44,438 bases of DNA from Raillietiella orientalis (lineage: Eukaryota), in contig JAYWIR010000098.1 of NCBI GenBank assembly GCA_036172245.1, positions 186,001 through 230,438 on the forward strand, written 5' to 3'. The translations under genes were made by a program, and so were the position numbers. The notes beneath the pieces were generated by a model. That model had not been told where the DNA came from. It saw nothing but the letters and a program-made list of their open reading frames with translations, and did not search any database. This document shows, piece after piece, positions 701 through 42,987 of the stretch (position 1 is the stretch's first letter; each line of letters starts with the position of its first letter).

Positions 701-711
701 CGCCTTGCAAC

Positions 712-2946: not shown

Positions 2947-3942
2947 ATGCCGGGAATCTCCTCCCACCGTCGTCTGCGCATCGCCGTTTGGAACGTGAAC
3001 GGCATGACAGACGCCGGCAGGAGACGAGACATGTCCGCCATTCTAGGATCGTTCGACCTTGTGCTGCTGCAGGAGATCCATGTGATCTCTGCCGAACAAG
3101 CGCAGGAGATCGAACGCATATACGGAGGGCGGCTGTGGTATCTAAGTGGAACATCGAGAAGTTGCGGTGTCGCCTACCTCCTTCGGTTCGCCATCGAGGC
3201 CGCCGCCCGTGGAGTTCGGTTCAACGATCACGGTCGTGTCGGCCAGCTGAATCTCAGCTGGTATGACTCGATCAACGTGATCGTTACGAACGCTTACGCC
3301 CCGAGCGGAGCGGACCTGACGATCAAGAGGGCCAGGAAAGAAATTTTCCTTGCCCTCTATCGCGACTGGTTGACCCAGGCAGGCGTGCGGAATGCCCATC
3401 TGGTTGCAGGCGATTTTAAGGTTCGTCTGAAACCGGATGGGCCGAATCACGAGCGTGAACTGGTCAACGAGGTGAGCGCGGCGGTGCAAACATGTAATTT
3501 GTTGGCCAGTGTACCAGGGATGGAGGATAACATCGATCACGTGTTCCTTGACGAGCACCTGTGCACTCGTGTGGGCAGGCGCTGCAAGTTGCCGTGCGAG
3601 TTATCCGACCATCGACTAATCGTGATTGAAATCCATCAGCGCGACAATGGCTTCCCCTCGTCAGCGTGGCGTTTGCCAGGGGACTGGCTGAAGCTCCCGC
3701 ACGCGACGGAACATCTCCGCACGTTTATACGGACCTTCAGGATGCAGAAACTTCAGGATTGGGACCGCTTCAAACGGTCGGTCCAGGAGTTCTGCGACCA
3801 GTTCCCTCTGCACCGCCTACCAGCGAGATTTGGGGACGGGGTACGCAACGAACGAGCCTATCTGCAGGCTCGTCGTTACGCCAGGACCCCCGACATCAGC
3901 AGGCTGGCGGAATACAAAGCGGGAGCCGAGAGGCAAGCCTAG
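2947..3942 (+). pseudogene. ORF2 apurinic/apyrimidinic-like endonuclease domain plus linker, ending at a premature TAG
   Basis: ATG at 2947 in a TAATG overlap; full APE motif set in ORF 2587-3942; the stop replaces the W of the conserved RQAWQSG. Confidence 0.9.
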
Positions 3943-7505: not shown

Positions 7506-7509
7506 TGCA

Positions 7510-13559: not shown

Positions 13560-14205
13560 TTTTTACCCGGTCAAACAGAGACGTTTATTAAAAAACCTTA
13601 CAGAATTTGCGGTGCAAGGACCCGCTGCGGCCAATAAATCTAAGGAGCTGTCGCGTGGACGGTGCACATACCGACTTGACACTCCACGTCAAAGGATGGA
13701 CATTGAAGAAAAAAATATAAAGAAGAAAAAAGAAAAATTAAAAACACTAGTTATTTGGAGGCTCAAGAATGGATCACCCTCCGTTGTGGGGAGGCTGCAT
13801 CCTTTGCAGTATGCTGACGAGGTTTTAATAGAGATTTCTTAGTTGGGGCCGTCGGGATGCTATTCACAGAAAGCGAGCAGAATACTCCATGACGTTCTCT
13901 CCGTTAACATCCTCTGCTTCGTCGAATGCAGTACAAGCTGCCACAATGCCGGGTACGCAGCACAGAGATGCCATTACAACGGCTGGCTGCAGGTTGTCTC
14001 GCACGATGAGAAGCCGAAAAACGTCTCTGGGAAGGTTACCTTCCCGGATTCCTAAGGTAGAACCGAAGCGTCATCACAGGGGCCAAAGGGCATCACAGTC
14101 AACTAGAGGGTGCGGAAGGCTTTCCGCTCTCCACATCGGGCACAGTTGCGCTTCAAACCTGTGTCCTTCTAGGGAGCGGAGGTGGTTTGGCATTGCTCAG
14201 CGGTC
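13560..14205 (-). mobile_element. LINE 3' fragment (C-terminal finger, 3' UTR)
   Basis: Minus strand ESLPHPLVDCDALWP..SLCCVPGIVAA; T-rich UTR; AATAAA on minus at 13584-13589. Confidence 0.85.
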
Positions 14206-14208
14206 TAG

Positions 14209-16834
14209 TTAGTGCGAAGGTTTTCGGTGCTTTTGTCTGGTGTGTAGGAGCGCCGGTGCCCCACGAAACAAATGCCTGAGGACACCGCGATGGAAATCAG
14301 GGGAGGAGAGGTGACTTCCTCGCCACCACCCATGAAAGTGAGGGTGTCCGCCCACAAGGAATCCGGGGCACTTGCCAAATCGGAATCGGGGGCAACCGTC
14401 CCTTCGCGACCCTCTTCGGCAGCGACGAGGAGTTGGAGTGCCGTCGTTCCTGCAATTTCCCCGGCTGCAATAGCGAAGCAGACTGCCTACAAGGACAGCG
14501 GCTACAAACCGTCGCTGAACCACAAGGTAGGCAGCGTGTTCGACGAGAAAATTGCACGCTAATTTCAAATGGAGTTGAAAAGACTGAATGTGAGGAAGGA
14601 AGACATCGAGAGGCTCTCCGTCCTTAGTGGGGGGCACGACTTGAGCTGACTTGCACAGAGGCAAGTCTGGCACAGCGCCTGCTAAACAACCCCATTACGG
14701 TAATCGCCGCAGGATCTTCCCTGTGACAGAGGACCGGTCCGTCGTGGTCCACCTCACGGGCGTATCACTCCAAATGGACAAAACCAGCATATATAAGGAG
14801 TTGTCAAAACACAGCAGTGTGCACGCGTATTAAGCCAAATCCAATGTGGTCGGAGCGTACGAAAGGTTATTCAGTGAAATGGCCGCTGCCCGCGTCGCAA
14901 TACCGGAGAATAATGGGTTTCCCCACAAACTAAGTATCGGCGAAGAAAAAGTCGATGTTAGGTGCGTGGGAAAGCCCCAGTATTGTAGCCATTGCAATGC
15001 TACAGGGCACTTAAAAAAGCTGTGCCATAACATCCAATGCCGCTTATGTGGAAAAAAGGGCCACATCCGCAAGGTGTGCCCAAAAAGAGAAATCCCGGTC
15101 CCTTTCGCTGCCAAAAAGGCAAAGGGGAAACAATCGAGAGAGACAAATACCATGAAGCAGGCTGTAAGGAGCCAGATGCCAGTCCCTAAGCCATCCCAGC
15201 AAACGTCGGTTCAGAGCACTCCCGACGACGCTGGCGACGGCGAAGGCTGGCAGATGGTACAGCCCAGATGGAAGCCTGGGAGTTCCAAACGAGGCGCGGG
15301 GAAAACAAAAACGCAGCGCAAAAAACCGTGCCGCGAAAAATTCCGCTCTTCTTCTATAACATTAGAGCGTGTGGAGGCACTCGATGCCGCCACCGGGCGA
15401 GCAATTCCCCCCTTGCGTCCGCCGAAGCTGCGACGGTCGATGACGAACCCTCTGGAGAACCAGAGGGGGAACCAGGCGCCGCGCTCAACGCGATCGACGA
15501 GGCCGCATTCCAGCAGGCGGTGGAAGAACTCGAGGCAGAACTGCAAGGCCGTGAGAAGAAGTCGCGGATAGGCTTACCAAGACCGGCCGCGAAAAAGGCT
15601 CCGGATGCAGGAACTGCGTCCTCATCGAAGGCGCCACCAAAGATGACGGGACGCAAGTTCTAGAATCCCAGGAGGTCCGTACGGATCAAGAAAGAGGAGC
15701 ATGAAATGGCACCCGAGGGGGAAGACGGCAACGTGAGACGCGAGGGTGGGAATCTCTCATTCCCAGACACCGTGCAGCTGGCGACCCTCATAGAGGAGGA
15801 AGTACAGGTGGGTAAAACCCTTCTTCCTCTGCACGGCCCTAAAAAAGGCTCGGCCTCCATGAAGGAGGGAGAAGCGGTGCGCAACGCACCCCCTCCTCCT
15901 AGCGTCCCGCCCCAACAGGTGGCGGGAGCCCTATTGTTACTTTCCCAGGATTAACATCTGGACTCGCCTGTCGCCGTAGGAACCGCGTAGCCTGCTGGAA
16001 CGTCAACGGGCTGCGCGACGACGGAAACAGGCGGGATTCGGCCGACACCCTGCGCGACTCCGACCTGGCGCTCCTGCAGGAGATCCACGTGATCACCGCG
16101 GAGAACGCCCAGGAGATCGAAAGGATCGCAGACGGTTGTCTATTTTTGCAATGCGGCGCTCGCAACACCTGTGGCGTCACCTTTTTTATGAAGCCAGCAG
16201 TCGCCGCCTTCGTCAAGGACGTACGCTTCGACAACGACAGTCAGGATGGCCAGCTCATTCTTAGGTGATCCGACTCGATCGACCATGTCGTGACCAATGT
16301 GTACGCTTTGAGCTGGGGATGCGGGTACGGGGAACGTTTCCGGTTCCTCGAAACCCTGATGCGGGACTGGCTGGCGGATACAAACGTACGCAAAGTGCAT
16401 CTGATCGGTGGGGATTTCAACATCCGTCTGCTCTCAGGTGTGCCTTGCGGACAAAAAGACGCAGCCAACGAGCTGTGCACTGCTATGCGCACGCGCAACT
16501 TGTTGGGGGACCTACCGGAAATTGTCCAAAGCGTAGACCACATCTTGCTTGACGCCAACCTGTGCCCACGGGTCGGCAGACGAGGCAAACTTCCGTCGAC
16601 GCTATCGGACCATTTCCGGTTGATATTCGAGGTTATGGCTCGCGACAAAGGACCACCATCCAGAGCGTCGCGTGTCCCTCGGGGACAAGACGCGCATCTC
16701 GGGTGCGCCGGAACATCTCCGCCAAGTACTGGGAGGCGTCATTCTCCGGAATCTCTAATTCTAAGACCGCATGGTTTCGGTTCGCGAGTTCTGCGAGGAG
16801 TTTCCTGTGCACAGCCTGCCCCAGGGATTTGGTG
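14209..16834 (+). mobile_element. 5' half of a type-A LINE: 5' UTR, disrupted ORF1, APE, start of linker
   Basis: MPEDTAME start at 14272; knuckles CSHCNATGHLKKLC and CRLCGKKGHIRKVC; APE WNVNG, LIGGDFN, VDHI, LSDH; cut at LPQGFG. Confidence 0.9.
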
Positions 16835-18130
16835 TTGTCACCCGGGTACGCTTGGAGCGTTGATTTAAAAAAAACTCTCTACCTTCGTTGGTATGAGGTT
16901 CCACTACGGCCTTAGACACGCCACTTGTCAAGACACCAGGACGCAGCCCGACGTGGCACTCCCCGACAGCGGAAGGGAATGAAGGAAAAAACAAAAAAAA
17001 AAATAAAAGGGATAAACAAACAGAAAAAAAAAAAAAAAAATTTGGAGGGAAGGGAAGAGATCACCGGACGCTATGCAGAGGGCCCATCCGTCGAAGGAAG
17101 CCCTCTAGGTCTGTCCACATTCTTCCCAGATGTGGCCATCGGGCAGCTCTCCGCAAGAAGCGTACTGCGTGCTGGATGACTTCCCTCTCGTTCCAATCTA
17201 CATCTTCGCTGCTGGCATCGCTCCATGCCGCCACGATGCCTCGAACGCAGCACAGGACTGCGAGGGCTGCTGCTGGCCGCAGGGCGTCCCGCACGAAGAG
17301 GAGGCGGAAAACGTCTCTGTGTTCACTGCCCGTAGGGAGCCCGAGGGTCGTCCCGAACCGTTCCCAAAGGGGTCGGAGATCATCACAATACAATGTAAGA
17401 TAGAGGAGCGACTTCTCCTCCCCGCACCTTGCACACTCATGCCTTACACTTCCCCGCGTCCAGTGGAAGCGGCGCGCGTTGCAGGGTAGACCCCAGTGCA
17501 ACAGTAGCAGCGCCGTCTCTTGCCACTTTAGAGGAAGAAGCCTGGATCCGATGAGAAGTGGAGGCCACTTCAGGTCATCCTTCGAGATGCCGAGCAGCTC
17601 AACCCATCTCAGAAATCCACGCGGGGGAGCGCTAGGGGTCGTGGCGTCTGCCAGTTCTCCCATGGTCCAACCGCTCATCTTTTTTTCGTTTCCTGCGATT
17701 CGGCAGGAAACTTGTCACTTTGGCGTCCAGCCGCTGGTTAGCGCCTACCGTAGGAAGAAAGCGTCGAACCTAAAGGGGTGGTCTTCGCCTACGTGCTTCT
17801 TGCGGGACAATCCAGAGTGCTCCGTAGGGTGCAGCAGGCGTTGGGGCCGAATCGCAGGCGGTTTCAATTTTCGGTTCCTGGGTTGTTCAGGTTAGCCCAC
17901 GTCGCAACGGATTCCTCCAGCCAAGTGGGGGAGTTGGCGAAGCTGCATATAGTCCAGCCGTTTTCTCTCACTAGGGCTTCGATGCGTCCAAGGAGGAGGC
18001 CGCATCTCCTGAATTTCCTGCCGGGGCACAGAAGGAAAGTCGCGAGTCCTTGCGTCGTGCATACACGGCTGGCGAGGATGCGGGCTGGAGCGCACCAGAG
18101 CGTGTTCCATGTCTTGGATGAAGGAAGAGG
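16835..18130 (-). mobile_element. LINE 3' fragment (post-RT, C-terminal finger, 3' UTR)
   Basis: ORF 17061-17678: LPLKWQETALLLLHWGLPCNARR..CARCGEEK..LAVLCCVRGIV; A-tracts on + are the T-rich UTR. Confidence 0.9.
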
Positions 18131-18197
18131 ATTTTGGCAATGGTAAGGGAATCAGGCTGATGCTCTTTGTTTATGGGTTCTTTGGCTGTTGGGTTAA

Positions 18198-18320
18198 TTT
18201 CCAGGCTTGACGCTCGGCCCGGGCTTGATATTCGGTCAGGCGACGGACATTGGAGGTCCTCTCGTACCGTCGGGCCTGTAAATAGGCCGTATGGTTGCGA
18301 GCCCCCTCCTTAAATCCGTG
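18198..18320 (-). mobile_element. LINE ORF2 linker fragment, probably the same element as 16835-18130 after loss of the RT
   Basis: Minus translation GFKEGARNHTAYLQARRYERTSNVRRLTEYQARAERQAW. Confidence 0.75.
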
Positions 18321-20610
18321 GCGAGCGGACGTGTTTTTCCTTCGCTCCCCAGTGAGTCGACAGGAAGCGGGTGTTTTGTGGTGTTTTTTGTGTGGAACAT
18401 CTTTGTTTTCCGATATGAGCGATGCCTGAGGAAATCACGATGGAGGGGAGCCTTGCCTACCCCCACAGCCTACAGAAAAAGGGGCGTACGCCCCGGAATC
18501 GCCCTCGCCTCCCAAGGCGAGGAGCTGGAGCACCATCGTGACCGCGCCTAGCGAGCAGGCCATGGCCTAGATGGTGGCCTACCGGACAGCTGGGTACAAG
18601 CCCAGCTTAATGTACCAGGTAGGCAATCTCTTTGACGGGCGAACTGCACGCGCTTTTTCGAAGGCGCTGCAGAACGCCAACGTATTAGAGAAGGATATTG
18701 ACGGTCTATCCGTGCTCAGCGGGGATCAGCGCGTCGAGGATGTCTGTAAGCACATCACCTTTGCGCAAAGCTTTATCACTACCCCGCTGAATGTGGACAT
18801 GCGCAAGATCCTGCCAGTCATGATGGACCGCTCCGTAGGGGTCCATCTGACTGGTATCACCAGCCGCATGACGCGGTATGCGGTTGGTGATTAGCTGAAA
18901 AAATACGGCGAAGTACACGCGCTATGGCCAAAGGCCACAATCTTTGATGATTACGATAGCCTTTTCGGAGGGCAGGCCGCCGCGCGTGTGACAATTAAGA
19001 AGGATAGTGGGCTTCCCCACAAACTAGAGGTTAATGACGAAGTCTTAGAACTCTGGTAAGTTTGGCAACCCCGCTTTTGTGGCCACTGCAATGCAGTAGG
19101 ACACCTTCGTAAGAGGTGCCCGAACATTGTGTGCCACTAATGCGGGGAGAAGGGCAACGTGCGTCGCGTGTGCCCTAAACTCCGCACTCCGGTGCCGCCT
19201 GCCGCCAAGAAAGCGCAGGTAAAACGCGGAAAATTGATCGAAAGACGAAAAAGAGATACTGGCCGCCAGCAACCGCAAGCCCTTGTTCCTCTTACACAGG
19301 CGTCGCAAGAAAAACCTTCCGAAGACGCGGGATTCCAGGACGGCTGGAAGCTGGTTAAGGCCAGAAAGGAAAACAGGGTGCCCCCGCGGAACCCGCGAAG
19401 GCGGTAAAAAAGACCACCGGCAAGGTGAAAAAAACCTGGGATGCGCTCCAAGACTCTGCGTGAATGTACGGTGGCACTGGAACGCATAGCCGTTCCCGAG
19501 ACTGCCACCCGGGGCGACGAACCTCCCATCGCCGTTTCCGCCGTGCCCGAGGTTCGCGAACGCGAACCCTCTGTGCAAACAGGAGCAAACGGTCCAAGCC
19601 GAAGAAACTGCGTTCGCGCAGGCGGCGGAAGAGCTCGCGGACACGCTGGCAGAGAGTGAGAACCCCTCGCCCAAGGCCGTGCGAAGGCCGGCTCCGGCGA
19701 AGAAGGCCTCACAGGTGAGTTTGATCTGGGGGACGAAAGTACATCCTGCTCCTCGGAGGCACCCTTCAGGAAGTCGGAACGCTATTCCCAGAAACCCAGG
19801 AGGCGCCTCCCCTCCACAAGCGAGGAGGAGAAGCAGGAAGGTAGCGGGAGCGTGGGAATCCCGGAGGGGGAGCTCTCACCCTCGGAAGCCGTCGGGCCGG
19901 CATCCCCATGGAGGAGGGTAAGCAGGGGGACGAAGTCCTCCCTGCAGTTGCAGAGCCTGAACAGCACCTTCCATGGAGGAGGGATAACAGGTAGGCGCGA
20001 ATCCAACTGAGGGTGACCCGCTCGAGGCGCCGTTACCCATGGAGGGGGGGGAACAGGTGCAGTCAGCGCCTTACCCTCCTCCTCCACCTTTCGTCCAGCC
20101 CCAACAGGTGGCGGAAGGCGCATCGCCATCTTTCCAGGAGTAACACCTGGGCTCGCTACTCGCCATCGGATTCGCGCCGCCTGTTGGAACGTCAACCGGC
20201 TGCGCGACGACGGTAACAGGCGAGATACGGCCGACACCCTGCATGAGCTCGACCGGGCCCTGTTGCAGGAGATTCACGTGGTCACCGCGGCAGACGCCCA
20301 GGAGACCGAGACGATCGCGAGAAGTCGGTTGTATTGGAGATGTAGCCTCCTTAACACCTGCGGGGTCGCTTTCTTCGTGAAGCCAGCCACCGACGCTGCC
20401 GTGAAGGGCGTGCGCTTCGCTGACGGCGGTCGGGTCGGTCAGCTGATTCTCAGCTGGTCCCACTTCATCGAACTGATCGTCACGAATGTGTATGCACCCA
20501 GCGGAAAACAGGGATACAGCGACCGCACTAGGTTACTGGAATCACGGAAGTGCGACTGGCTGGCGGAGACGAACGTACCGAAGGCTCACCTGATAGCGGG
20601 AGATTTCAAT
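18321..20610 (+). mobile_element. 5' half of a type-A LINE (5' UTR, disrupted ORF1, APE up to GDFN)
   Basis: GAGCGGACGTG 5' motif; AYRTAGYKPSLMYQVGNLFDG; two knuckles at ~19078-19173 (one with a stop); APE ORF 20263 ends HLIAGDFN then switches to a type-B 5' end. Confidence 0.9.
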
Positions 20611-22475
20611 CGAGTGCGGACGTGTTTTTCTTCGCTCTCGTATCCGTGCTTTCATCCGCTTCATCTTGGCGTCGTACATTTTGACGACGATGTCGACCCA
20701 ACCCGAAGCTACTGAAGTTGGAGGAACAGCATCCGGATCTGCAATCGCGGAACCGACGGCCGCCTCCACTTCGTCTTTCTCGCCAATGGAGAGGAGTTTT
20801 GCTGACGTTGCTGCCACAGCAGCCGTCAAAGGGAAACCACTCGACGAGTCGGAGTTGCGGGCATACGTAGCCCAAGGCTATAGACCTGCTTTCCGATATA
20901 AGGTGAGTGGTTTTCTTTCTGCGCGCGACGGGAATACGTTCAAAAATGAACTGACCCGTGTTGGCGTGCGGGAGGAGGACCTCCTCGCTATTATGCCCGT
21001 AAAGGATATGGGCTATTCCAAGGTGCGTTGCAAAGACGCTGCACTTGTGCAACGCTTGCTGCGCACCCCTTTTTCGATCCGTGGCCAGAAGGTCTTCTCG
21101 GCCGCCATGGACGACTCATTTGTGGCGGAGATTTTCGACATCGAGTCGGAAATCTCGGATATTGATATTCGGAACGCGTTGGCGAAATTCGCCACGGTCC
21201 ATGCGCTGTGGAGGGTGCGTTGCCACCTCAAGGACTTCCCGTCCATACACATCGGAGTCGCAGGAGTCCGGCTTACAATGCCGAACCGCCGTCTGCTGCT
21301 CACCAATCTACAGGTGAAAGACACGGTCGTTAACCTGTGGTTCGTGGGCAAAGTAAAAACGTGCGAGCAATGCGGGAAGGAGGGGCATTGTTTGGATAAA
21401 TGCCCCTCTGGAAAATGCCGTTATTGCAAACTATCCGGGCACCAATTGAAAAATTGCCCGGTTCTTTTGCGAAAAAAGGCAGCCGCGGAGCTCATTCTTA
21501 AAAAACAAAGCGCGGATAAAAAGAAAAAATCTGCGAAAAACCTGCAGACCTCACGGCAGAAATTCCGAAAAAACTCGAGGCGGAAGGTCGCCCCAAAGCA
21601 GCAGGAAACCTCGCACGCGAAGCCCTGCGCGCCCTCTCTCGCGGCAGGGGAGCCGCAAAAGAAAGGGTGCGGGGAATCCGGGGCAATGGTAAGTCCCCCT
21701 AGGCGCAATAGCTGTCCTTCCCAAGCACGCCCGGCTCTTTCGGAGTTCGAGCACCCGGCGGGGACGTCAATGGACAACGGCGGTAAGGACACTTCCAGTA
21801 CCATCAGATCCATTCCTTTACCTCCTGCAGTGGCTGAGAAGCCCAAATCGGGTAAGAAGGGTTGTGCAGTGTCGACTTCGAAAGTCGGCAAAAAAAAATC
21901 CGCGTCGCGATCCAACACCGCGAAAGCGGAGAAAAATCTCACGCCGTCGCAGTCGGAGAAAAAGCTCTCGACCGGCGCGGATGCCGTGCCAACGAAGGGA
22001 TTAAAAGCCCTTCCGAAGGCAGCGTCCAGGACGAGCGTGTCGGACCCATTGAAAGTGCTCCGGTCCAAAGACGCGGATGGCTTCAAAGATGGCAATGGAG
22101 CACAATCTCCATTTACGGCGCCACGCGAAGTGAGGAACCGCAATGAACTAAAGAAGACTTCAGCGAAGGTCCCTCGTGCAACTGCGCGTGAGCACGCTGA
22201 AAACGCGCGCGCCGGGAAAGCAGCCGTCACCAAAAGCGATGCTCTGGTGACGGAAAACGACAACAGGACAGCTATCAATCCAGCAGAACCTGTCACTACT
22301 TCGCCGAAGGCCGAAACCCGATCGAACATGCGCCGGTCGAACTCCGAAATGGTTGTCGTTCCGATCACCGAGACGAGGACAACTCGTTCAAAAGCGTTTG
22401 CGCGCCAATCAAATGTAGGCAGCCAGGCAACGCCCGCCGTGAAGCAACGCGAAGTCTCCACGAAACCCGACGGGG
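20611..22475 (+). mobile_element. 5' portion of a type-B LINE (5' UTR plus ORF1)
   Basis: Starts CGAGTGCGGACGTG; near-identical to 43454-44438; cut at 22476 by an antisense 3' end. Confidence 0.88.
20616..20636 (+). promoter_or_regulatory. Conserved LINE 5'-terminal motif GCGGACGTG(T/C)TTTTC(C/T)T(T/G)CGCTC, DPE-like internal promoter candidate
   Basis: Also at 18325, 41078 and 43459; contains GGACGTG, matching the RGWCGTG downstream promoter element. Confidence 0.55.
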
Positions 22476-22519
22476 TTTTTCACCCAAGTAAGCCGGGGCT
22501 TTTATTACTAAAATTCTGA
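20690..22519 (+). CDS. Type-B LINE ORF1 protein with two CCHC zinc knuckles and a long K/S/A-rich tail; last ~14 codons come from the antisense neighbour
   Basis: Uninterrupted ORF (track 20666-22519; first ATG 20690) with CEQCGKEGHCLDKC and CRYCKLSGHQLKNC. Confidence 0.85.
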   Translation: MSTQPEATEVGGTASGSAIAEPTAASTSSFSPMERSFADVAATAAVKGKPLDESELRAYVAQGYRPAFRYKVSGFLSARDGNTFKNELTRVGVREEDLLAIMPVKDMGYSKVRCKDAALVQRLLRTPFSIRGQKVFSAAMDDSFVAEIFDIESEISDIDIRNALAKFATVHALWRVRCHLKDFPSIHIGVAGVRLTMPNRRLLLTNLQVKDTVVNLWFVGKVKTCEQCGKEGHCLDKCPSGKCRYCKLSGHQLKNCPVLLRKKAAAELILKKQSADKKKKSAKNLQTSRQKFRKNSRRKVAPKQQETSHAKPCAPSLAAGEPQKKGCGESGAMVSPPRRNSCPSQARPALSEFEHPAGTSMDNGGKDTSSTIRSIPLPPAVAEKPKSGKKGCAVSTSKVGKKKSASRSNTAKAEKNLTPSQSEKKLSTGADAVPTKGLKALPKAASRTSVSDPLKVLRSKDADGFKDGNGAQSPFTAPREVRNRNELKKTSAKVPRATAREHAENARAGKAAVTKSDALVTENDNRTAINPAEPVTTSPKAETRSNMRRSNSEMVVVPITETRTTRSKAFARQSNVGSQATPAVKQREVSTKPDGVFHPSKPGLLLLKF

Positions 22520-22740
22520 CATTACAGAACTTTGTAGTAAGGTCTTTGTTGTTAAAAAAGAAATTTCCTTTTTCGGACGTCAGACGTTCATTGAAGTTCA
22601 ATAGCACTTGTCTTTATCGACCCGGAGGCCGATAAAGTCCTTCACTGGCGCCGGGACGGGGAAATTAAACAGAAAACAAAACAAAAAAAGTAAAACGTCT
22701 GGAAAGCAATGATTTTGGGTAGCGGGAGCTAGGGAGGGGA

Positions 22741-25317
22741 TTACCGTGCGCCGTGAGCAGGCCTTTGCATCTGGTTTCGTATGCGAACAAGTGTCGGTAA
22801 ATGTTTTTGAAGTCGGCGCCAACGGCCGCCTTTCTCCGAGGAGATCGCTGCCCAGTTGATGGCATTCCGGCTGGTCCTTTCTCTCCTAGACGCAGTCCAC
22901 TTCTCCGGGATACCGCGTATGCAGCAGAGCACTGCTACGCTCCCGGAGGCTGGCAAGCCGTCTAGCGTCAGAAGGCGTATGAATATATTTTTCGGGTCAC
23001 CCTCCCGAATGTTGAGGATCGACGAGAATCTGTCCCACATTTCGTGGAGGGCAACACACTCCAGAATCATGTGGGGAAAGGTCTCCCTTTCCCCGCACTC
23101 TGCACAACTAGCATCCACATTCCCCGATGTCCAGGGAAACAGGCGTGCTCCGCTCAAAAGTCCCCAGTGGAGCAGAAGCAACGCCGTCTCCTGCCACTGC
23201 AGGGGAAGGGTGCAGTTGTCCCATGACGCTGGTGGCCACTTCACCTTCTCCGGAGGTGTACCGAGCAGCGCGCCCCAGCGTAAAAGTCCGTTCGGCGAGG
23301 CACTCGGGGTACTAGCGTCCGCTAGTTCCCTCGGCGTCCACGCCTTCACTGATTTTTTCCTGCCTCCAATGAGGCACGACACTTTCTACGATGCCTGTTG
23401 GTGGCTGTTTCGAACTTCCCCGAGGGAGGGCAGCACTGGGGCAAGGGGGGTGAAGGAAGCCCACAGAAGTTTTCGTGGGTTGGAAACGATCTCCTGGAGT
23501 GGCTGACCAGCGTACCTCCCTCTGCGGAGGCAGAAGTCCTCTTCGCTGGTGCCATTGATCTTCGCCCATGCGGATACGGACTCCTGAAGCCAGGTAGTCC
23601 AGTCCGCTGGGATGCAGGAGATCCAAGGGTTGTCTCCCATCAGAGCAACCAAATCCCGCTATTGATAATTACAATGGTTCAGGCTGCGATCGTTGGCTAC
23701 CAGGATTGAAGTCAATCCGAAGCAGCCGGTTGCCCTGTGAGCAAGAAGTCTTGCTGGTGCACACCAGGGTGCTGTCCAAAACTTTGCCACAAGGGCAAGT
23801 TTTCTGAACTGGAGCTGTCGCTCCATGCGCTCCAACGTCAGGAGACCAAGTCCACCGTCCCTGCGTGGAGCGCACAAGCCTTTGAGCCGGACGCGAGGCC
23901 TCCGGTTGCCCCAGAGGGCTTTACATATAAGGCCCTGAGTCCGTGTCCTTATTTGATAAGGTGTAGGGCACACAAAAGGTAGGAGGCGAAGGAGGGGGGC
24001 CGCGAAAGCGTTCCATACCGTGGCCCGTTCCTGCAAGTGGAACTTGCCGTCCCGGAACGGGCCGATCGCCAGCTCCACCTTTTGTAGACGGTCGGACCAG
24101 GCTTCTGCAGAGCAGAATTCCCCCAACGAAATGCCAAGGTACTTGATGTACCTGCCCGTTGGGATCCCCAAGCGGATCCAGTCAGACCGTCCGGCCCTCG
24201 TCAAGTCGGTGAAAAGGAACGACGATTTCGTCCTGTTTACCTGTAGGCCTGTCCCACGGTATAGCAACTCGAAGAAATTCTCAAGCGCCGATGCCGGGGT
24301 GGACCCGGGAAGCAGGAGCAGAAGATCGTCGGCATAGGTCGACACGGCAAGCGTGCCGGGACACGAGCACGGCAGGGTTGTTAAAGTCTCCCTGTATGCT
24401 CTCAGCACCAACTCAAAGTAGATGCTGGAGAGCAGGGGGCTGAGGCTGTCACCCTGCCGGATGCCACGACGAACCGGCACGCCATACACCTTGTGGCCGC
24501 TAAAAGAGACGGTAATCATCGCATTCCGCCAGCAAGAGCGCAGGTAGGAAATGAGGGAGGGTGGGAAGCCCATGCGACCCAGGAGCTCCAAGAGGAGTTC
24601 CTGGTCCACACAGTCGAACACCTTGTGGAGATCGACTGAGAGCGCTAGGGCCCCCTTCCCCGCTTGGGGGTCCCTTCCCAGCCCGACTGGCGGCCCCAAT
24701 GTGGGGTTTCCGACTTTCCCTATCCCTTTCTTCTCTCTTCTCTGCAGGTGCACCCATGTGCTTGCGAAGAAGAGCTTGGCATCCATACTTCGCCCGGGAA
24801 CAGAATAAGTCTGCTCCGGGCTAATTACGGATTCTGCCACCTGCCCCAGACGCGAAGCCCATAGCCCTGCTATCAACTTGGCGTCCGTATTCACGATCGT
24901 GATCGGACGCCAGTTCTTTAAATTCCTGAGGTCTCCCCCTTTCGGAAGGAGCCTCACTCTGGCTGACCGAAACGAGGCGGGAACATCGCCTTCGTCTCGG
25001 ATCAGCCTTGTCAGCTGAAGCAGAAGGGGTGCCAGCTCTTCCGCGAAGCTCTGATAGAACTCCGCGGGCAAGCCGTCTTCCCCTAGAGCTTTACGCCTCT
25101 TGAGCCTTTTGATACCGGCGACAATTTCGCCGGTGGTAAAAGGCTCGTCAAGGCTTTCCATCTCCTCCTCCCCTATTGCCGGGGCGCCATCCTGAAGCAA
25201 GCGCCGAGAGGCGTTTCGATCCGGGGGCTCCCTGGAGTAAAGGGAGGAATAAAAACTCCGCACGAGATGCCGTACCAACGCCGGGGACGAACATTCCCGG
25301 CCCTGGTTGTCCAGCAA
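22741..25317 (-). pseudogene. ORF2 reverse transcriptase and C-terminal CCHC domain; one frame broken by two stops
   Basis: ORFs 23659-25317, 23386-23652 and 22741-23382 share a frame. LLPKGGDLRNLKNWRPI and EQTYSVPGRS resemble Xenopus Tx1 ORF2 as recalled. Also RGIRQGDSLSP, STYADDL, KYLG, DGGLG, CAECGERETFPHMILEC. Confidence 0.93.
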
Positions 25318-25783
25318 GCTAGCCGACCCGGATTGTCAGGCTTGGCGTTCGGCCCCGGCGTGGTACTCGGCCAGGCGACGGACATTAGTGGTTCTCTCGT
25401 ACTTACGAGCCAAGAATGTTTACCGCTGGGGGCGTGCACATTCGTGACGATCAGATCGGTCTAGTCGGACCAGCTGAGAATCAGCTGTCCGATCGGACCG
25501 TCGTCATCGAAGCGCACGCCCTTCACGACAGCGTCGATGGCCGGCTACACAAAGAACGCGACCTCGCAGTTGTTGCGGATGCTGCATTGCCAGTACACCC
25601 GCCCACCCGCGATCGTCTCGATTCCCCGGACGTCTGCCGCGATGATCACGTGGATCTCCTGCAGCAGGGCCAGATCGTGCACACGCAGGGTGTCGGCCGT
25701 ATCTCGCCTGTTACCGTCGTCGCGCATCCCGTTGACGTTCCAACAGGCGGCGCGAATCCGACGGCGCCTGGAGAGCCCAGGTG

Positions 25784-27410
25784 TTACTCTTGGGAAGATG
25801 GCACTACGGCGTCCGCCACCTGCTGGGTCGGGACGCTGGGTGGAGGAGGAGGGTCAGGTGCTGAGGGCACCTGGTCCCTCTCCACCATAGGTAACGGCGC
25901 GTCAAGCGGGTCACCCACAGGTGGGGTAGCGCCTACCTCTTCGCCCTCCTCCATGGGGGCGGACTGTTCAGGGTCGGCACCTGCAGGGGGGACTTCACCC
26001 CCCTGTTCACCCTCCTCCATGGGGATGGCCGGTCCGACGGTTTCCGAGCGTGGGAATTCCTACTCCGAACTTCCCACGCTGGCGACGGCTTCCGTCTTCT
26101 CCTCCTGGCTCGTGGAGGGGAGGCGCCTTCTGGGCCTCTGGGACTTGCGTCCCGACTTCCTGGAGGATGTACTTCCGGCCCCCTGGTTTAACTCACCTGT
26201 GGGGGCCTTCGCCGGAGCCGTCCTACGCACGGCCTTGCGTGAGGGGTTCTCACGCTCGGCCAGCGTGACCGCGAGCTCCTCCGCCGCCTGCGCGAACGCG
26301 GCGTCCGCGGTTTCGACCGCCGCGATGTCGCGCGGCTTACCCTCTGTGTAAACAGAGGGTTCGCCGTCGCGAGCCTGGACGCGGCGGAAACGGCGAGGGG
26401 AGGATCGTCGCTCTGGGTGGCAACCTCGGGAACGACGATGCGTTCTAGTGCCACAGTGTACTCGCGCAGAGTTTTCGAGCGCGGGCCGGGTTTTTTCGGC
26501 TTACCGGCCGTCTTCCGCTGTTTTTTCTCCGCGGGTTGGAGTTTCTTTGGCTTTCTGGCCTCTGCAAGCTGCCACCCCTCTTCGCCTTCCATCGTTTCGG
26601 AAGGTTAATCCTCCGGCTTACGCGCCGGAGTTTAAGGTGTTGGCAGCTTGTGCTGGCCCTTTTCCGCTTTAGTTCTAGAGACCTTTGGTGCGCGTTTCCC
26701 CTGAGCTTTTTTTGCGGCAAAGGGAACCGGGGTGGGGCGTTTGGGGCACACGCGCCGAACGTGGCCCCGCTCCCCGCACACATGGCATTGTATGTCAAGA
26801 CACCGTTTACGTAGGTGTCCCACGGTATCACAATGCTCGCAATACCGGAGCTTCCCTACATACCGCAGTTCGACGTTTTCTTGTGCCACCTGTAGTTTGT
26901 GGGGAGGCCCACAATTCTCCTTTACGGTGACCCGTGCTGCAGCCTGACCACCAAAAAGGCTATCGAACCCGTCGAAAATGGTGGGTTTCGGCCACAGTGC
27001 GTGCACCACACCGAACTTACGTAGTTCCTCACCAAGCGCTGACCGCGTCTTGCGGCTGGTGATGCCGGTCATGTGGACCACCACGGAGCGGTCCATTGAC
27101 ACTAGCAGGATCTTGCGGCCGTCTACGTTCAGCGGCGCATGGATTAGGCGGTGAGCCAAGGTGACGTCTTTGCAGACCACCTCGACCCGCTGCCCGCCGC
27201 TGAGGACGGAGAGGCCGTCCAGATCCTTCTTTGTGACATTCACGTCCTTCAACGCTTTGCTGAAAGCGCGCGCTCTTCGGCCGTCGAACAAGTTGCCTAC
27301 CTGGTAGACAAGCGATGGCTTGTACCCGGACGCCTTGTATGCGGCCATCTCCGCCATGGCTTCCGCGCTGAGCGCAGCCACCATGGCGCTGCATGTCCTC
27401 GGCATGGCCG
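25784..27410 (-). pseudogene. Type-A ORF1 (two CCHC knuckles), frameshifted
   Basis: Segments in ORFs 26632-27867, 26188-26592 and 25784-26020. Confidence 0.88.
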
Positions 27411-27519
27411 GAGATGATTCCGGGGCGGCTGCGCCTGCTCCAGTAGGCTGTGAGGGCGAACGACACGAAAGCTGCGTTAACGAAACGTAAGTCGTCCACG
27501 GCCACAGCACGCTGAAAGC

Positions 27520-27965
27520 ACCTGCTCTCTCCAAGCCGCCACGATTACACGAATGCATCACAGCACTGCTATACACGCAACCGGGGGCAAGGCGGCACGA
27601 GAGAACAGGCGCCTGAAAATGTCCCTGGTATCGCCTCTGCCAATGTCCCCTCTGGATCGTCGTTGGACGATTCCAGAAGGGACGGAGGGCGATGCAGTCC
27701 ACAAGAAGGTGAAGGAATGTCTCTTGGTCCCCGCACCGGTCGCAGAGGTCATCCACACTTTCGCGTGTCCTGTGAGTTGGGCGTGCTTTGCACTGGAGTC
27801 CACAATGTAGGACGAGCAACGCAGCCTGCTGCCACTTCATGGGAAAGGGGCCACTGTTCCAGCACATTGGGGGCTACTTCACCTCCTCTGGAGGTAATCC
27901 GAGTAGGTCGCCCCAGCGTAAAAGAGCATTAGGCGGGACACTCGGGGTCGCATCGTCCGAGATGT
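27520..27965 (-). mobile_element. LINE ORF2 C-terminal fragment
   Basis: PMKWQQAALLVLHCGLQC..CDRCGDQETFLHLLVDCIALRP in the first part of ORF 26632-27867. Confidence 0.85.
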
Positions 27966-37400: not shown

Positions 37401-37614
37401 AACAGCATTGCGGAAGGCGTGAAGAAAAATTGGCACGTGCATTGATCCCAATTGTCCCGCAAGAATTTTGCCGTGCCGATTGCCAAAATGGTAAACAGCC
37501 TGTTTCCTCTTCAGCTTCTTCCTAAAAGCGCTCTTTCCGCTTTTTTCGTCAATGACTATCCTTACGGATGCACTTGGCTCCCCATCTCACGCCATTCTTT
37601 CGCGTGTAACATCA

Positions 37615-38081
37615 AGCTTGTAAATACCATCTCTCGTTACGCACGCTTTCACCAAACGCGGCAGGCAGCAGGTTCATAGGGAACTCGTCGCAAAACTCCC
37701 GCACCGAGCGTTTTAGCGGTCCCAGTCCTGAAGCGTCTGCAAGCTGAAACCTCGTATGAATCCGCGGAGATGATCCGCGGCTTCCGGAATTTTTAGCCAG
37801 TTCTCCGTCAAGTGCCACGGAGATGACGGGGGCCCCTATCGCGTGGGCGCACCTCAAGTACGATCCGGTCATTGTCCGACAATTCCGACGGTAACTTGCC
37901 GTGCCTGCCCACGCGTCAGCTTAGGTGATTGTCAAGGCACACGTGATCTATGCTGTTGGCCATTTCCTGATCTCCCGCGAACAGGTTGCGCGTGTGCATC
38001 TCTGCGCACAGTTCGAGGGACAGTCTGGAGCGACAGTTCTGCTAAACGACCAGAACCGGAAATGCTCGGCTCCAGCCGACG
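37615..38081. mobile_element. Inverted LINE fragment: APE C-end and linker on minus (37615-~38014) joined to the next linker segment on plus (~38015-38081)
   Basis: Minus: ELCAEMHTRNL..SIDHV..GKLPSELSDN..SVREFCDEFP..RNERWYLQA. Plus: GQSGATVLLNDQNRKCSAPADV. Confidence 0.8.
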
Positions 38082-41071
38082 TTTGCCACCCGGATATACC
38101 GGGGCATTTATTATTCTAATATTTTACAAAAATTAGATAATAAAGTCTTTCAAAAGTTAAATGTGGGAAACACTTGGTTTTCCCACCTTGGTTGACGTGT
38201 CTGTTGCCGGTGCATAGACCGGTTAGGTCCATTCCCGAGGCTCATCGAAAGGGAAAACTAGAACAAAAACAAACAAAAAGAGAGATAACGGGGAGGGAAA
38301 CATTTGAATGGGGAGAGCGGAGGGGCAAGGAAGGGATCACTGGGCGCCTGGGTCGGTCCTCCGTATCCTGTTGAGGATGCAGTCAAGTTCAGTTTTTATT
38401 GTGAGAGGTAGACGCCACCTTGTCGCCGTCTCTAAAGAGATCGTCGTCCAGCGGATGGCGTCCCTGCATCTCGGGCCTCTCCTTCTGGCGTGCCACCTTT
38501 GCACAATGCCGCGCACGCAGCAGAGGACTGCTAGAGACGCAGCGGGGCGCAGGCCGTCACGCAGAAAGAGGCGACGGTAAATTTCCTTAGGGTCGCCTAC
38601 TGGAAGATGAAGGATTGGGGCGATTCTACTCCAGAGTCCATCCAGGGCGACACACTCGAGGGTGAGATGCAGAAAGGTTTCTCTTTCTCCGCACTCGACA
38701 CAGCGGGCATCCACATTCCCCAGAGTCCAGTGAGACAGGCGTGCTCTGCTTAACAGTCCCCAGTGCAGAAATAGCAACGTCGTCTCCTGCCACTTCAACG
38801 GAAGTGTGCCGCAATCCCTACACGCTGGGAGCCACTTCACCTCCTCCGGAGGTATTGCGAGCAGCTCTCCCCAGCGCGGAAGTCCGTGAGGCGGGACGTT
38901 CGGGGTGGCAACGTCCGTGAGCTCTCGAGTCGTCCACACCATTAAAGGTTTTTTCCTGCCTCGGATCAGGCAGGACACTTCCCACGATGCCCGCCCGTTA
39001 ATGCTCCTAGTATTTTTAAGGGAGGAAGGAACGGGGGCAAGGGGGCTGAAGGAAGCCCACAGAAACTTCCCGGGCGTGTTGATAATATCCTGCAGCCGCT
39101 GTCGAGCGTACGGTCCTCGTCGTAGGCAGTTGTATTCCGCCTCGCTCGTGCCCTTGATCTTAGCCCACGCGGAAGCTGACTCCTGAAGCCACGCAGTGCA
39201 GTACGCGGGGATGCAGGAGATTTAGGTATTCTCCCTCATCAGGGCGACCATCTGGCGCAAATCGGGGCCACAGTTGGAGAGGCTTCGCTGGTAGGCCACG
39301 AGGATCGAGGACAATCATTCGCAGCCGGTCGCTCTACTGGCAAGGAGCCGTGCCGGATCGCACCATGATGTCATCCATAAGCTAGCCGCAAGGGCTAGCT
39401 TTCGAATTGTTGTTTGAAGTTGGATGCGCTCCAACGTAAGGAGGCCCAAGCCACCATCCCTGCGTGGAGCGCACAAGTCTTTCAATCGGACTCGCGACCT
39501 CGCTGTGCCCCAAAGGGCAGTCCTCGAGTGTGCTTTGGTCCGTCTCCGTATGATGGAAGGGGCGGGGCAAACAAAAAGTAAGGGGCGAAGGAGGGGGGCC
39601 GCGAACGCGTTCCACACCGCGGCCCGCACCTGCAAGAAAAACTTGCCGTTCCGCAACGGGCCCATCGCCAACTCCACCTTTTGGAGACGGTCGGACCAGG
39701 ATTCTGCAACGCAGAAGTCCGCCAACGGAACGCCAAGGTACTTCAAGCACCTGCCCGTGGGGATCCCCAAGCGGATCCAGTCCGGCCGTCAAGCCCACGC
39801 CGTATTGTTGAAAAGTAGTGGTGATGTTGTTACGATGGAAGATTTCTCTGTGTTCACCTCGAGGCACGTCCCGCGGCGCAGCAACTCAAAGAAATCTTCG
39901 AGCGCCGACGCCGGAGTGGACCAGGGGAGCAAGAGCAGAAGGTCGTCGGCGTAGGCCGACACGCCAGGCGTGCTGGGACACGAGCTTGGCAGGGTTGCCA
40001 AAGTCTCCCTGTATGCCCTCAGCACCAGCTCGAAGTAGATGCTGAAGAGCAAGGGGCTCAGACTGTCACCCTGCCTTATGCCACGCCGGACCGGCACGCC
40101 GTACACGTGCCGGCCGCTAGAAGAGGTGTTTATTAGAGCGAAGCGCCAGCAGGAGCGCAGGTAAGCCCGGAAGACGGCCGGGAATCCCAAGCGTTCCAGG
40201 AGCTCCAGAAGCAGATCCTGGTCGACGCAATCGAACGCTTTACGCAGATCGACTGCGACCGCAAGGGCACCGGGCGCGGCTCCCCCATGAAGGGCGTCCC
40301 CTCCCTGGTCAGAGGAGAATCCAGGATTCTCTTCGCCTCCCTGGTCTTCGCTTTGTTGCAACTGCCACCATGTACTGGAGAGGAACAGGTTAGCCTCCAT
40401 GCTTCGTACGGGAACAGCGTATGTCTGCTCCGGACTCACCACGGATTCCGCCACCTGTCCCAGTCGCTCAGCTCAAAGCTTGGCAAGCAGCTTCGCATCC
40501 GCATTCACTACTGTGATGGGGCGCCAGTTGCCTACGTTGCGATTGTCTCCTCCTTTCGTCAGGAGACGTACTCTAGCTGACCGGAACAATTTGGGGACGT
40601 CCTCTTGTACTCGGATCAGCATGCATAGCCGATGCACCAGAAGGGCCAGTTCCGCCACGAAACCTTGGTAGAACTCCGGGGCAGACCGTCTTCCTTTGCT
40701 TCTTTCCTCTTTCGGAGCTTTCCGATGGCGAAGACGATCTCCGCAGTCGAGAAAGGCTCCTCGAGTTGATGTGCCTGCTCCTGCTGCAGCGCGGGGGCTT
40801 ATTGCGGCAGCGAGCGCTGCGCCACGGCGTTCTCTGTTGTTCTACGCGCGTACAAGGAGGAGTAATAGTCCCGCAGGATGCGATTTATTTTTGCCGGAGC
40901 TGAGCATTCTTGGCCTTGGGCGTCCAGCAAGCTGGCCGAACCGGATTGCCAGGTCTGTCGCTCAGCCCCAGCTTTATACTCCGCCAAGCGTCGAACGTCG
41001 GGAGTCCTAGAGTAAAGACGGGCGTGGTGGTATGCCCGGTCGTTCCTCAGCAATTGGCCGAATCCCCGCTG
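38082..41071 (-). mobile_element. 3' two-thirds of a LINE (linker, RT, C-terminal finger, 3' UTR), disrupted
   Basis: ORFs 40799-41155, 40473-40658 (NWRPITV), 39789-40454 (DLRKAFD, RQGDSLSP, AYADDL), 39315-39770 and 38337-38978 (CVECGERETFLHLTLEC); AATAAA on minus at 38107-38112. Confidence 0.93.
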
Positions 41072-41167
41072 TGGAGAGCGGACGTGCTTTTCCTGCGCTC
41101 CGCCTGCGTGGCAAAGCGAGTGTTTTTTCTTCTTGAGTGATTTGTGCGTGCACATCGTCGGTGTCCG

Positions 41168-42987
41168 ATGGCAGCGTTACCAGAGGACACAGCGATGGAA
41201 GTAGGCGTGATAAAGGCTTGTTCGTCCCCACAGCCTACTGGATTAGGGGCATCCCCCCCGGAATCGTTCCCGGCGACGCCGAGGTCATGGAGCGCCATGA
41301 TGGCCGCGCCTAGCGTGGAAGCCATGGCCGAGATGGAAGCCTACAAGAAAGCGGGGTATAAACCCTCGCTAGTCTACAAGGTAGGCAACCTTTTCGATGG
41401 GCGAACTGCACGCGCCTTTACGAAGGCGCTGCAGAACGCCAATATTTTCGAAAAAGATCTCGACGGCCTCTGCGTCCTCAGCGGCGGGCAGCGGGTCGAG
41501 GTGGTATGCAAGGATATCACCTTGGCCCGACATGTGATCACCGACCCGCTAATCGTTGATGGTCGGAAGATCTTGCCGATAATGATTGACCGCTCGGTGG
41601 TGGTCCATCTCACTGGGATCTCCAGTCGAATGACTAGGTCAGCGGTTCGAGAACAACTACAAAAGAACGGAGAAAAGCACGCGTTGTGGCCGAAGTCCAC
41701 GATTTTCCAAGGCTACAATAGCCTTTTCGGAGGTCAAGCTGCGACGCGTATCAAAGTAAAAGAGGGTGGTGCGCTTCCCCACAAGCTGGAGGTCTGCCAA
41801 GAAGCGGTGGACCTCTGGTACGTAAGGGAACGCCAATTTTGTGGCTACTGCAATGCAGTAGGGCATCTACGAAAAAGGTGCCCGAACATTGTGTGCCACC
41901 TATGTGCCGAAAAGGGTCACGTTCGGCGCGTGTGCCCCAAGCGCCCCACCCCGGTGCCCCCTGCCGCCAAAAAGGCGAAGGGAAAAGGTGGATAGCTGGT
42001 AGAAAGACCAGCTCGCGAAAATGGTCGTTCCCAACTGCCATCCTCCCTTCCTCCCGTACAGACGTCGGAAGAAAGAACTCCCGTGAACGCGGAAATTGAG
42101 GAGGGTTGGCAGCTGGTTCAGGCCAAAAAGAAAGAAAAAAAGAAATTAATGCCAGAAGGAAAGTGTGAGAAGAAAACTGCCGGCAACAAGAAAAAAGCCG
42201 CGCCGCTTTCAAAAGAAAAGCAGCTCCGCGAATGCTCGGTGGCACTCGAACGCTTAGCCGTTCCTGCCGAGTCCGCCCGCGGCAATGTTCGCGGAACAGC
42301 TGATGCGGACGCGATGAATACTCGCGTGGACGAGCCCATTCTAAGTTTAGAGGGTGAAACGCGAGACTCGCGCGCCGACAGCCAGGACGCCGCTCTCGAT
42401 AAGGTCGCGGAGCAGCCCGCGGCAACGGTCACCGCTGGCGAAGACGCGACCTTCGAGAAAGCGGCGGAGGAGCTCGCAGCAACGCTCGCCAAGCGCGAAA
42501 CCCCGTCGCGCATGGGCGTACGTAGGTCGGCTCCGACGAAGAAGGCCCCCGCAGGTGAGTGCGACCTGGGGGCCGGAAGCGGATCCTCCTCCTCGGGGGC
42601 ACCCCCAGGAAGTCGGGACGCAAGTCCCAGAAACCCAGGAGGCGCCTCCCCTCCACCAGCGAGGAAGAGAAACCGGAAGGAAGCGGCAGCGTGGGAATCC
42701 CGGAGGCGGAATACCCACGCCCGGAAGCCGTCGAGTCGGCCACCCCCATGGAGGAGGGTGAGCAGCGGGGTGAAGTCCTCCCTGCAGTCGCGAAACCTGA
42801 GCAGCCCGAACCCATGGAGGAGGGCGAACAGGTAGGCGCGACTCCACCTGCGGGTGATCCGTCCGACGCGCCGGCACCGATGGAGGAGGAGGAACAGGTG
42901 CCTTCAGTACCTGTCCTTCCTCCCCCTCCACCTGGCGTCCCGCCCCAGCAGGTGGCGGACGCCGCATCGCCGTTTTCCCAGGACTAA
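41168..42987 (+). pseudogene. Type-A ORF1 with two CCHC knuckles, broken after the knuckles
   Basis: CGYCNAVGHLRKRC and CHLCAEKGHVRRVC in ORF 41144-41995; continues in ORFs 42083-42835 and 42559-42987. Confidence 0.88.
42748..42945 (+). repeat. Three ~66-bp (22-codon) tandem units encoding MEE(G/E)EQ in the type-A ORF1 C-terminus
   Basis: ATGGAGGAG at 42748, 42814 and 42880; equivalent triplets at ~19908-20060 and on minus at 26020, 25954 and 25888. Confidence 0.8.

Follow-up and report, generated by a model that had tools for sequence, protein, structure and literature searches.

A nest of L1-like retrotransposons

We analysed a 44,438-nt stretch of DNA from Raillietiella orientalis (contig JAYWIR010000098.1, positions 186,001 to 230,438; hereafter, the window), in which three junctions between long interspersed nuclear elements (LINEs) fall on one short site: the LPxGFG codons of the linker in the second open reading frame (ORF2) of these elements. 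The three junctions hint at a preferred spot of breakage or insertion, something that a single window cannot prove. The GC-rich parts of the window, 1-28 kb and 37.6-44.4 kb, are a near-continuous nest of L1-like retrotransposons without long terminal repeats (non-LTR). Self-comparison and tblastn identified 20 ORF2 fragments in these 34 kb, and most of their termini adjoin other LINE fragments. Pfam searches found an endonuclease of the apurinic/apyrimidinic (APE) type, Exo_endo_phos, in 2563-3942 (E = 3.4e-11, 43.7 bits against a cut-off of 24.5), a reverse transcriptase (RT), RVT_1, in 23659-25335 (E = 4.2e-23, 82.6 bits against a cut-off of 29.6) and a second reverse transcriptase match at 39789-40472. 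The order of domains in copy X1 and in the copy at 8565-12821 is endonuclease, linker and then RT, as in L1-like (L1/Tx1-type) elements.

The termini of the elements follow recurring patterns. Five copies begin with the 5′ start motif G(A/T)GCGGA(C/G)GTG (at 14174, 18323, 20614, 41076 and 43457). Eight 3′ ends were aligned (2533-2564, 6712-6740, 8560-8590, 13562-13589, 16834-16865, 22476-22506, 32055-32086 and 38082-38112), and seven of them consist of AATAAA, about one base, GCCCCGG, about six bases, a GGGTG- or GGGTA-like stretch and then five or six A-rich bases. The 3′ end of X1 departs from this pattern. When the ends were inspected for a poly(A) or simple-repeat tail, none of the eight was found to carry poly(A).

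Two kinds of fragments are central to the junctions. Type A consists of the 5′ untranslated region (UTR), ORF1 and the endonuclease, and B-type fragments consist of the linker and RT on the minus strand. They are the 5′ and 3′ halves of one element kind, because copies A3 and B1 are collinear at 27525-22481 on the minus strand; the A3-B1 element has a deletion that runs from about amino acid (aa) 266 of the endonuclease to 48 nt beyond the LPxGFG site. The copies that take part in the junctions, or with which they are compared, are as follows.

2564 to about 6740, plus strand: X1, a collinear copy used as the coordinate reference, with an unbroken site (LPARFG) at 3817..3834
14168..16833, plus strand: X2, an A-like LINE with a full-length 5′ end (GAGCGGAGGTG at 14174), ORF1 and endonuclease, which halts at LPQGFG and covers reference aa 121-424
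16834..18121, minus strand: a 5′-truncated copy with the ORF2 C-terminus, 3′ UTR, exact 3′ terminus and the tail ACAAC, of the same family as the copy at 699-2559
18122..18204, no strand assigned: an 83-nt interval with no significant similarity, the sense linker included
18205..18321, minus strand: c18l, a B-type linker fragment of 117 nt that begins at the Pro codon of LPxGFG (18321) and extends to about 120 nt downstream
18323..20611, plus strand: A1, type A, with a full-length 5′ end (GAGCGGACGTG), an ORF1 that is frameshifted, the N-terminal part of ORF2 and the endonuclease as far as its GDFN codons
20612..22480, plus strand: C1, type C, with a full-length 5′ end (GTGCGGACGTG at 20614) and a 623-aa open frame with CCHC knuckles, interrupted at 22480 by the 3′ end of B1
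22481..25383, minus strand: B1, with RT, C-terminus and 3′ terminus (22481-22493); its start lies about 48 nt beyond the site, and A3 is attached to it in the same orientation
25384..27525, minus strand: A3, a type-A 5′ half with an open ORF1 and the endonuclease to about aa 266, collinear with B1 as one internally deleted element
38082..41074, minus strand: B2, B-type, from the Pro codon of LPxGFG (41074) through RT and C-terminus to the 3′ terminus (38087-38099, plus tail)
41076..43454, plus strand: A2, type A, with a full-length 5′ end, an open ORF1 of 284 aa and the endonuclease as far as GDFN
43455..44438, plus strand: C2, type C, with a full-length 5′ end (GTGCGGACGTG at 43457), running to the end of the window

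Three junctions at the LPxGFG codons

At the first junction, X2 reads CTG CCC CAG GGA TTT GGT G at 16816-16834 and then passes into the reverse complement of a LINE 3′ terminus. The minus strand carries GCGTACCCGGGTG at 16839-16851, which fits without mismatch a pattern also present in the 3′ end at 2547-2559; a short tail, ACAAC, comes after it. The partner as a whole (minus strand, 16836-18121) is 73% identical to 1305-2559. The second and third junctions have the opposite polarity. Reading down from 18321 and 41074, their minus-strand linkers open with CCACGGATTTAAGG and CCACAGCGGGGATTCGGCC, respectively, the first codon in each being the CCA for Pro; one extra base follows (C at 18322, A at 41075), and then the plus-strand 5′ terminus GAGCGGACGTG begins at 18323 and 41076, without mismatches in either case. 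The claim that prompted this analysis, that three junctions map antisense to one LPxGFG site, holds at the nucleotide level.

Both 5′ junctions use an identical target nucleotide, with the 3′ junction located 15-18 nt further downstream. The overlap between the two junction types had been put at roughly 12-15 nt; it exists, and it measures 15 nt in X2 and 18 nt in B2, the copy at 41 kb, whose site has one extra codon. The copies that are broken belong to different lineages. In all three cases the insert side of the junction is a complete terminus (one 3′ and two 5′), with zero mismatches to its motif. Complete termini at breaks point to a product of integration instead of random rearrangement, and this is the feature that best separates the explanations considered below. 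The site is intact in three other copies, at 3817-3834 (plus strand), about 11560-11574 (minus strand) and about 37651-37668 (minus strand).

The original prediction went further, proposing a second preferred target that type A uses in antisense orientation. The coincidence of the three junctions stands, with a polarity that fits antisense insertion and a 15-18 nt duplication, but the assignment to type A fails at the first junction. The insert there is a 5′-truncated 3′ fragment from the family of the copy that ends at 2559, with 52-62% aa identity to the copy at 699-2559 versus about 45% to the B-type C-terminus, the latter being the one that is collinear with a type-A 5′ half at 22481-27525.

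Probable independent origin of the junctions at 18320 and 41072

Descent of the junctions near 18320 and 41072 from one duplicated event had been named at the outset as a ground for refuting the original prediction. Synonymous divergence (dS), the distances among the A copies and the identities of the linkers all speak against a simple duplication, and the two junctions are probably not one duplicated event. For ORF1, A2 and A3 differ by a dS of 1.13, with a ratio of non-synonymous to synonymous divergence (dN/dS) of 0.17 over 257 codons; A1 and A2 by a dS of 1.26 with a dN/dS of 0.12 over 105 codons; and A1 and A3 by a dS of 0.86 with a dN/dS of 0.25. With dS at 0.86-1.26 and dN/dS at 0.12-0.25, the A copies therefore diverged as active lineages and not as dead duplicated DNA. 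The three A copies are also equidistant in every region (70-78% identity in ORF1, 81-89% in the endonuclease), even though A3 has neither junction.

The linkers at the junctions show the same lack of a special relationship. Across the 51 columns common to all copies, c18l is 82% identical to B1 and 69% identical to B2, with B1 nearer in 1920 of 2000 bootstraps. Across 125 columns, it is 58% identical to B2 and 67% identical to X1, whose site is unbroken. Descent from one junction could be salvaged only through several gene conversions, each ending at the junction.

We weighed that elaborated version, in which one ancestral junction was spread by segmental duplication and gene conversion from other LINE copies then replaced the sequence as far as the junction, leaving only two events at the site. 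It would explain why the order of B on the minus strand, A on the plus strand (from nt 1 to GDFN) and C on the plus strand (from nt 1) is seen in two places whose junction nucleotides are identical. Near the junction, identity is about as low in the linker (58-62%) as in the A 5′ UTR (60-65%), and conversion tracts from junction-free donors would naturally end at the junction. Yet identity is very uneven along the supposed duplicate, rising from 58-65% at the junction through 70-78% (ORF1) and 81-89% (endonuclease) to 93-98% (C), and ORF1 shows clear purifying selection. The equidistance of A1, A2 and A3, the closer similarity of c18l to X1 and B1 than to B2, and the need for several conversions with exactly placed ends all count against it, as does the step in identity described in the next section. 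We consider this explanation improbable.

The A copies (18323-20611, 41076-43454 and 25417-27525) also differ in how far their modules have diverged: dS is 0.86-1.26 in ORF1 versus 0.19-0.38 in the ORF2 N-terminus and endonuclease, and these values hold alike for all three pairs. This modular divergence suggests either an exchange of the ORF1/5′ module between lineages or a strongly region-dependent constraint.

A second shared nucleotide at the GDFN codons

Both A1 and A2 stop at the GDFN codons of the endonuclease (...GGGAGA(T/C)TTCAA), which are followed by TCGA and then by the complete 5′ end of a type-C element; C1 and C2 start at the identical GDFN nucleotide (regions 20560-20700 and 43400-43545). 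The two C copies are young, with 94% nucleotide identity (93-98% by region), a dS of 0.076 and a dN/dS of 0.71. Just to the left of the A|C junction, A1 and A2 are 81-86% identical with a dS of 0.38, so that identity steps from 86% to 93-98% within about 75 nt. Had A and C been duplicated as one unit, the two sides of the junction should have diverged to the same extent. Because they have not, the pattern is better matched by young C elements having been joined twice, on separate occasions, to one and the same nucleotide in older A copies. More generally, a step in identity at a shared junction, as between C1/C2 and A1/A2, provides a simple way to separate repeated insertion from duplication. 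The GDFN pair makes site-directed behaviour in these LINEs more credible.

Distribution of breakpoints along ORF2

We compared 25 curated internal fragment ends, placed on a 1324-aa ORF2 scale, with uniform simulations. Twenty-three of these ends come from one map of the ORF2 fragments, with a few values refined by further alignment, and two belong to a 60-nt fragment, f38, that this map does not contain. f38 and a neighbouring copy, c37, lie next to B2 at lower window positions.

37600..38014, minus strand: c37, starting at aa 303 of the endonuclease, crossing an unbroken site (about 37651-37668) and breaking about 62 nt downstream of it
38020..38081, plus strand: f38, a linker fragment of about 60 nt that covers site +120 to +185, with the 3′ end of B2 adjoining it antisense at +185

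Three ends within 6 aa anywhere on the scale arise in 12% of uniform simulations (p = 0.12), and by position alone the triple is not significant. The zone that starts at the site is a different matter: aa 418-482 (65 codons) contain 8 of the 25 ends versus 1.2 expected (p = 0.002), and in a conservative set in which small fragments are counted once, 4 of 21 ends fall within 18 aa (p = 0.044). Beyond the triple, the ends in the zone are the start of B1 (+48 nt), the break of c37 (+62), the end of c18l and the start of f38 (both at about +120) and the end of f38 (+185). Breakpoints in such nests are not random.

The enriched zone corresponds to the first 190 nt or so of the linker (X1 3817-4010; window 18205-18321, 25340-25383, 37600-37668 and 38020-38081), and at about +120 nt of the linker a 3′ break and a 5′ start coincide, the end of c18l and the start of f38.

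These numbers bear on the possibility that the triple is a chance coincidence in a saturated, almost wholly LINE nest with about 25 internal fragment ends. The 12% of simulations speaks for it, as do the heavy rearrangement of the cluster, with its many small fragments, and the failure under test of several apparent similarities (a microhomology, the spacer of a public contig and a flank at 18122-18204, all described below). Chance does not readily yield two ends at an identical nucleotide, three complete termini that all adjoin in antisense with a duplication-like polarity, a zone enriched in ends or a second same-site pair at GDFN. The coincidence of the triple is consequently stronger than p = 0.12 conveys, given its complete termini, shared antisense orientation and fitting polarity, an argument that is made post hoc. 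We regard chance as improbable too.

Integration at the site or joining of two cDNAs

The LPxGFG codons appear to be a recurrent breakpoint generated by retrotransposition, and among its possible causes we tentatively favour antisense integration with a 15-18 bp duplication. According to this scheme, the sense strand of a target copy would be nicked at about GGGATTT(GGT)|, and the freed 3′-OH would serve as primer for copying the incoming RNA into cDNA from its short A-rich tail, creating the first junction, in which ...LPxGFG is joined to an antisense 3′ terminus. The other strand would be cut 15-18 nt upstream, at the Pro codon, and the 5′ terminus of a full-length insert would therefore meet CCA..., as in the second and third junctions. 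The site would become duplicated, the observed overlap being the target-site duplication. The preference would stem from the endonuclease or the ribonucleoprotein particle (RNP), and not from fragile DNA.

A similar arrangement occurs elsewhere in the window. At 8556-8565, the copy on the minus strand at 8565-12821 meets, with its 3′ terminus, a plus-strand endonuclease fragment right after CCAGGAGATTT, a near match to the CCCAGGGATTT that precedes the first junction. We count this second antisense 3′ junction, which follows CCAGGAGATTT on the target strand, in favour of integration. Within 20 nt, GGATTY is present at 5 of 15 terminus junctions, a level that 26 of 20000 random placements reach.

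Several observations weigh against antisense integration. Once the three LPxGFG junctions are removed, GGATTY is found at 2 of 12 junctions (p = 0.15), and a general nick motif is not established; GRGATTT occurs 19 times in the window, with most occurrences unused. Relative to the GRGATTT core that the two sites share, the GDFN events have the opposite polarity. The insert at the first junction is a 5′-truncated fragment of another family and not type A. No copy in the window retains both target flanks with a target-site duplication, and the flanks of every element are non-contiguous. The interval at 18122-18204 was tried as the missing sense-strand flank with its duplication, and its local alignments score no better than shuffled sequences (p = 0.07-0.66). 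The reading draws on three junctions in one window, and their positions, as given above, are not significant on their own. Finally, the visible parts are complementary halves of one element kind, a 3′ half that starts from the site and a 5′ half that runs to GDFN, which favours a different mechanism, twin priming.

Twin priming was reportedly first proposed for the 5′ inversions of L1 by Ostertag and Kazazian in 2001. Here, the minus-strand 3′ half and the plus-strand 5′ half would be products of one event: a 3′-primed cDNA would stop at the site, another, primed internally from the opposite DNA strand, would reach the 5′ end of the RNA, and the two would be joined head to head. The site would be a preferred stop or an internal priming point, and the 15-18 nt overlap would be an overlap between two cDNAs. 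The collinearity of A3 and B1 agrees with this mechanism, because it makes the head-to-head pairs B2/A2 and c18l/A1 complementary halves. A third such layout exists, where a minus-strand 3′ fragment at about 13563-14144 faces the 5′ end of X2 at 14168. The 82% identity between c18l and B1 and the 81-88% identity between the A1 and A3 endonucleases are compatible with an origin of A1 and c18l from one RNA, and the passages of a human L1 study offer a precedent for 5′ inversions with a cDNA overlap of about 12 bp and breakpoint peaks (PMC12016303).

In the head-to-head layouts (18321/18323, 41074/41076 and 14144/14168), the two halves cover different parts of the element. Several features fit twin priming poorly. 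It does not predict that the broken end of X2 meets the exact 3′ terminus of a different family at the first junction. The inverted part ends at GDFN (aa 286) and its partners start at aa 418-420, leaving a gap of about 400 nt in both A/B pairs, and both inverted parts are bounded by the exact 5′ terminus of a type-C element. Neither a flanking duplication nor a contiguous target was found for any pair in the window. The RNA upstream of the site has no unusually stable fold that might stall the RT (z = -1.67, +0.57, -0.64 and -0.26 in four copies). The linker of B2 is 67% identical to B1, far below the 81-88% of the A2 and A3 endonucleases. We judge twin priming to be unlikely, though the main competitor to antisense integration.

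If integration is responsible at both shared nucleotides, the nest could be a sequence-directed LINE island. One group of elements would insert antisense at LPxGFG with a 15-18 bp duplication, type C would insert in the sense orientation at GDFN, and the B-A-C nest would have been rebuilt independently in separate locations, with LINEs targeting LINE coding sequence. We hold this broader picture to be rather doubtful.

Further comparisons and other features of the window

We also compared the window with public sequencing runs, among which one DNA run and no RNA run had words in common with it. The contigs of the DNA run, which shared 0.10 of the sampled words, were compared with window positions 1-20000 at 80% likeness. 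They yielded 604 pieces, 378 of them less than 90% alike, and none of the rows listed spanned 16835 or 18321. In the one informative joint listed, a contig (depth 2, with 26 letters on its short side) joins in tandem a 3′ end like that at 2559, 24 letters and an A-type 5′ end like that at 18323. The 24-letter spacer was considered as an antisense copy of the site (13 of 19 letters) and was rejected, as 17 other places in the window reach this level, and the closest resemblance (15 of 19) is to antisense RT at 39667. Likewise rejected was the idea that the antisense A 5′ end shares microhomology with the sequence preceding the site; such a match did not rank among the top ungapped ones in five copies.

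Full-length public ORF2 proteins are about 30% identical at best, and one 619-aa RT fragment reaches 65%. A search of metagenome contigs with the B1 RT returned no relatives. The 65%-identical protein (P0098), searched against metagenome contigs, matched seven loci with local identities of only 22-61%, and its own contig was not among the matches. Regarding the accessory domains, ORF1 of A2 passes the Pfam cut-off for zf-CCHC by a slim margin (22.0 bits versus 20.8), and the zf-RVT match in 38337-39221 stays below its cut-off (22.2 bits versus 27.5).

The A and C families have a common 5′ start, G(A/T)GCGGACGTG, yet their ORF1 proteins are merely about 29-33% identical. At 2547-2575, two elements form a head-to-tail pair without a spacer, in which the 3′ terminus at 2559 and the tail TAAA are followed by the 5′ start of X1 (2564). 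A very diverged copy at 12903 starts at the same element position as X1. We considered the common start of 2564 and 12903 as a third recurrent target and rejected it, as the alignment reflects the shared 5′ start of that element type. The region at 28000-37500 has a GC content of 39-45% versus 54-62% elsewhere, and its LINE content is a C-terminal fragment at 31248-32086 only. Within the low-GC 28-37 kb, Pfam matched none of ten open frames (98-174 aa), and the tandem repeats found there were only two, both very short.

Comparison with known systems

LINE-only islands act as centromere-like regions in some algae. If the hot spot at LPxGFG is real, it would provide a sequence-level rule for self-targeting LINEs that build such islands, and the ORF2 stretch of about 20 nt would be a testable target for an APE-type endonuclease or RNP. 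If twin priming is responsible instead, an L1-like element from outside mammals would have a point that is strongly preferred for inversion.

Human L1 is the reference for the latter case. According to the passages of the L1 study cited above, 5′ inversions are found in 18-22% of L1 insertions, the median overlap between the two cDNAs is 12 bp (quartiles 4-17), similar to the lengths of target-site duplications, and the inversion breakpoints show peaks (PMC12016303). The present layouts resemble these inversions in their non-inverted 3′ and inverted 5′ segments, set head to head, in the overlap of about a dozen bases and in the peaked breakpoints. They differ in that the inverted part reaches the very 5′ end of the element and stops 400 nt before the joint, that the 5′ terminus of another element bounds the inverted part, and that the first junction shows a 3′ terminus where target DNA is expected.

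Target-specific LINEs with APE-type endonucleases are a parallel for a fixed insertion site (PMC1919474, PMC4640811, PMC7265360). In R1, the Tx1 group and SART/TRAS, independent copies occupy one and the same nucleotide of a repetitive target, and the two strands are cleaved at set positions. In this respect, the window offers two identical 5′ junctions and one 3′ junction 15-18 nt away (n = 3, p = 0.12), which is alike in the identical nucleotide and the fixed offset. It differs in the target, which here would be the coding sequence of related LINEs, and not ribosomal DNA, small nuclear RNA genes or telomeric or microsatellite repeats. The specificity here is also partial at best, as other termini lie at unrelated sites and three of six copies of the site are unbroken.

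The Zepp and ZeppL elements, L1-type LINEs of green algae (Chlorella, Coccomyxa and Chlamydomonas), are described in the passages of one study as inserting into existing copies, and their clusters as nested and tandem arrays rich in 5′-truncated 3′ ends (PMC8226300, citing Higashiyama 1997). As a precedent for LINEs that target existing copies, they support antisense integration. The window is likewise almost wholly LINE in LINE, including the spacer-free head-to-tail pair at 2559/2564, and its insertions are concentrated in existing LINE copies, as seen in this one window. In contrast, the elements here have no poly(A) and end in AATAAA..GCCCCGG..GGGTG with five or six A-rich bases. Those passages report neither a defined site inside ORF2 nor an antisense rule for Zepp (PMC8226300). 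Measured against literature searches directed at Zepp, target-specific LINEs and twin priming, LINEs that target their own copies and APE-type LINEs with nucleotide precision are both known, and what may be new is a defined target within ORF2 that is used antisense in related LINEs.

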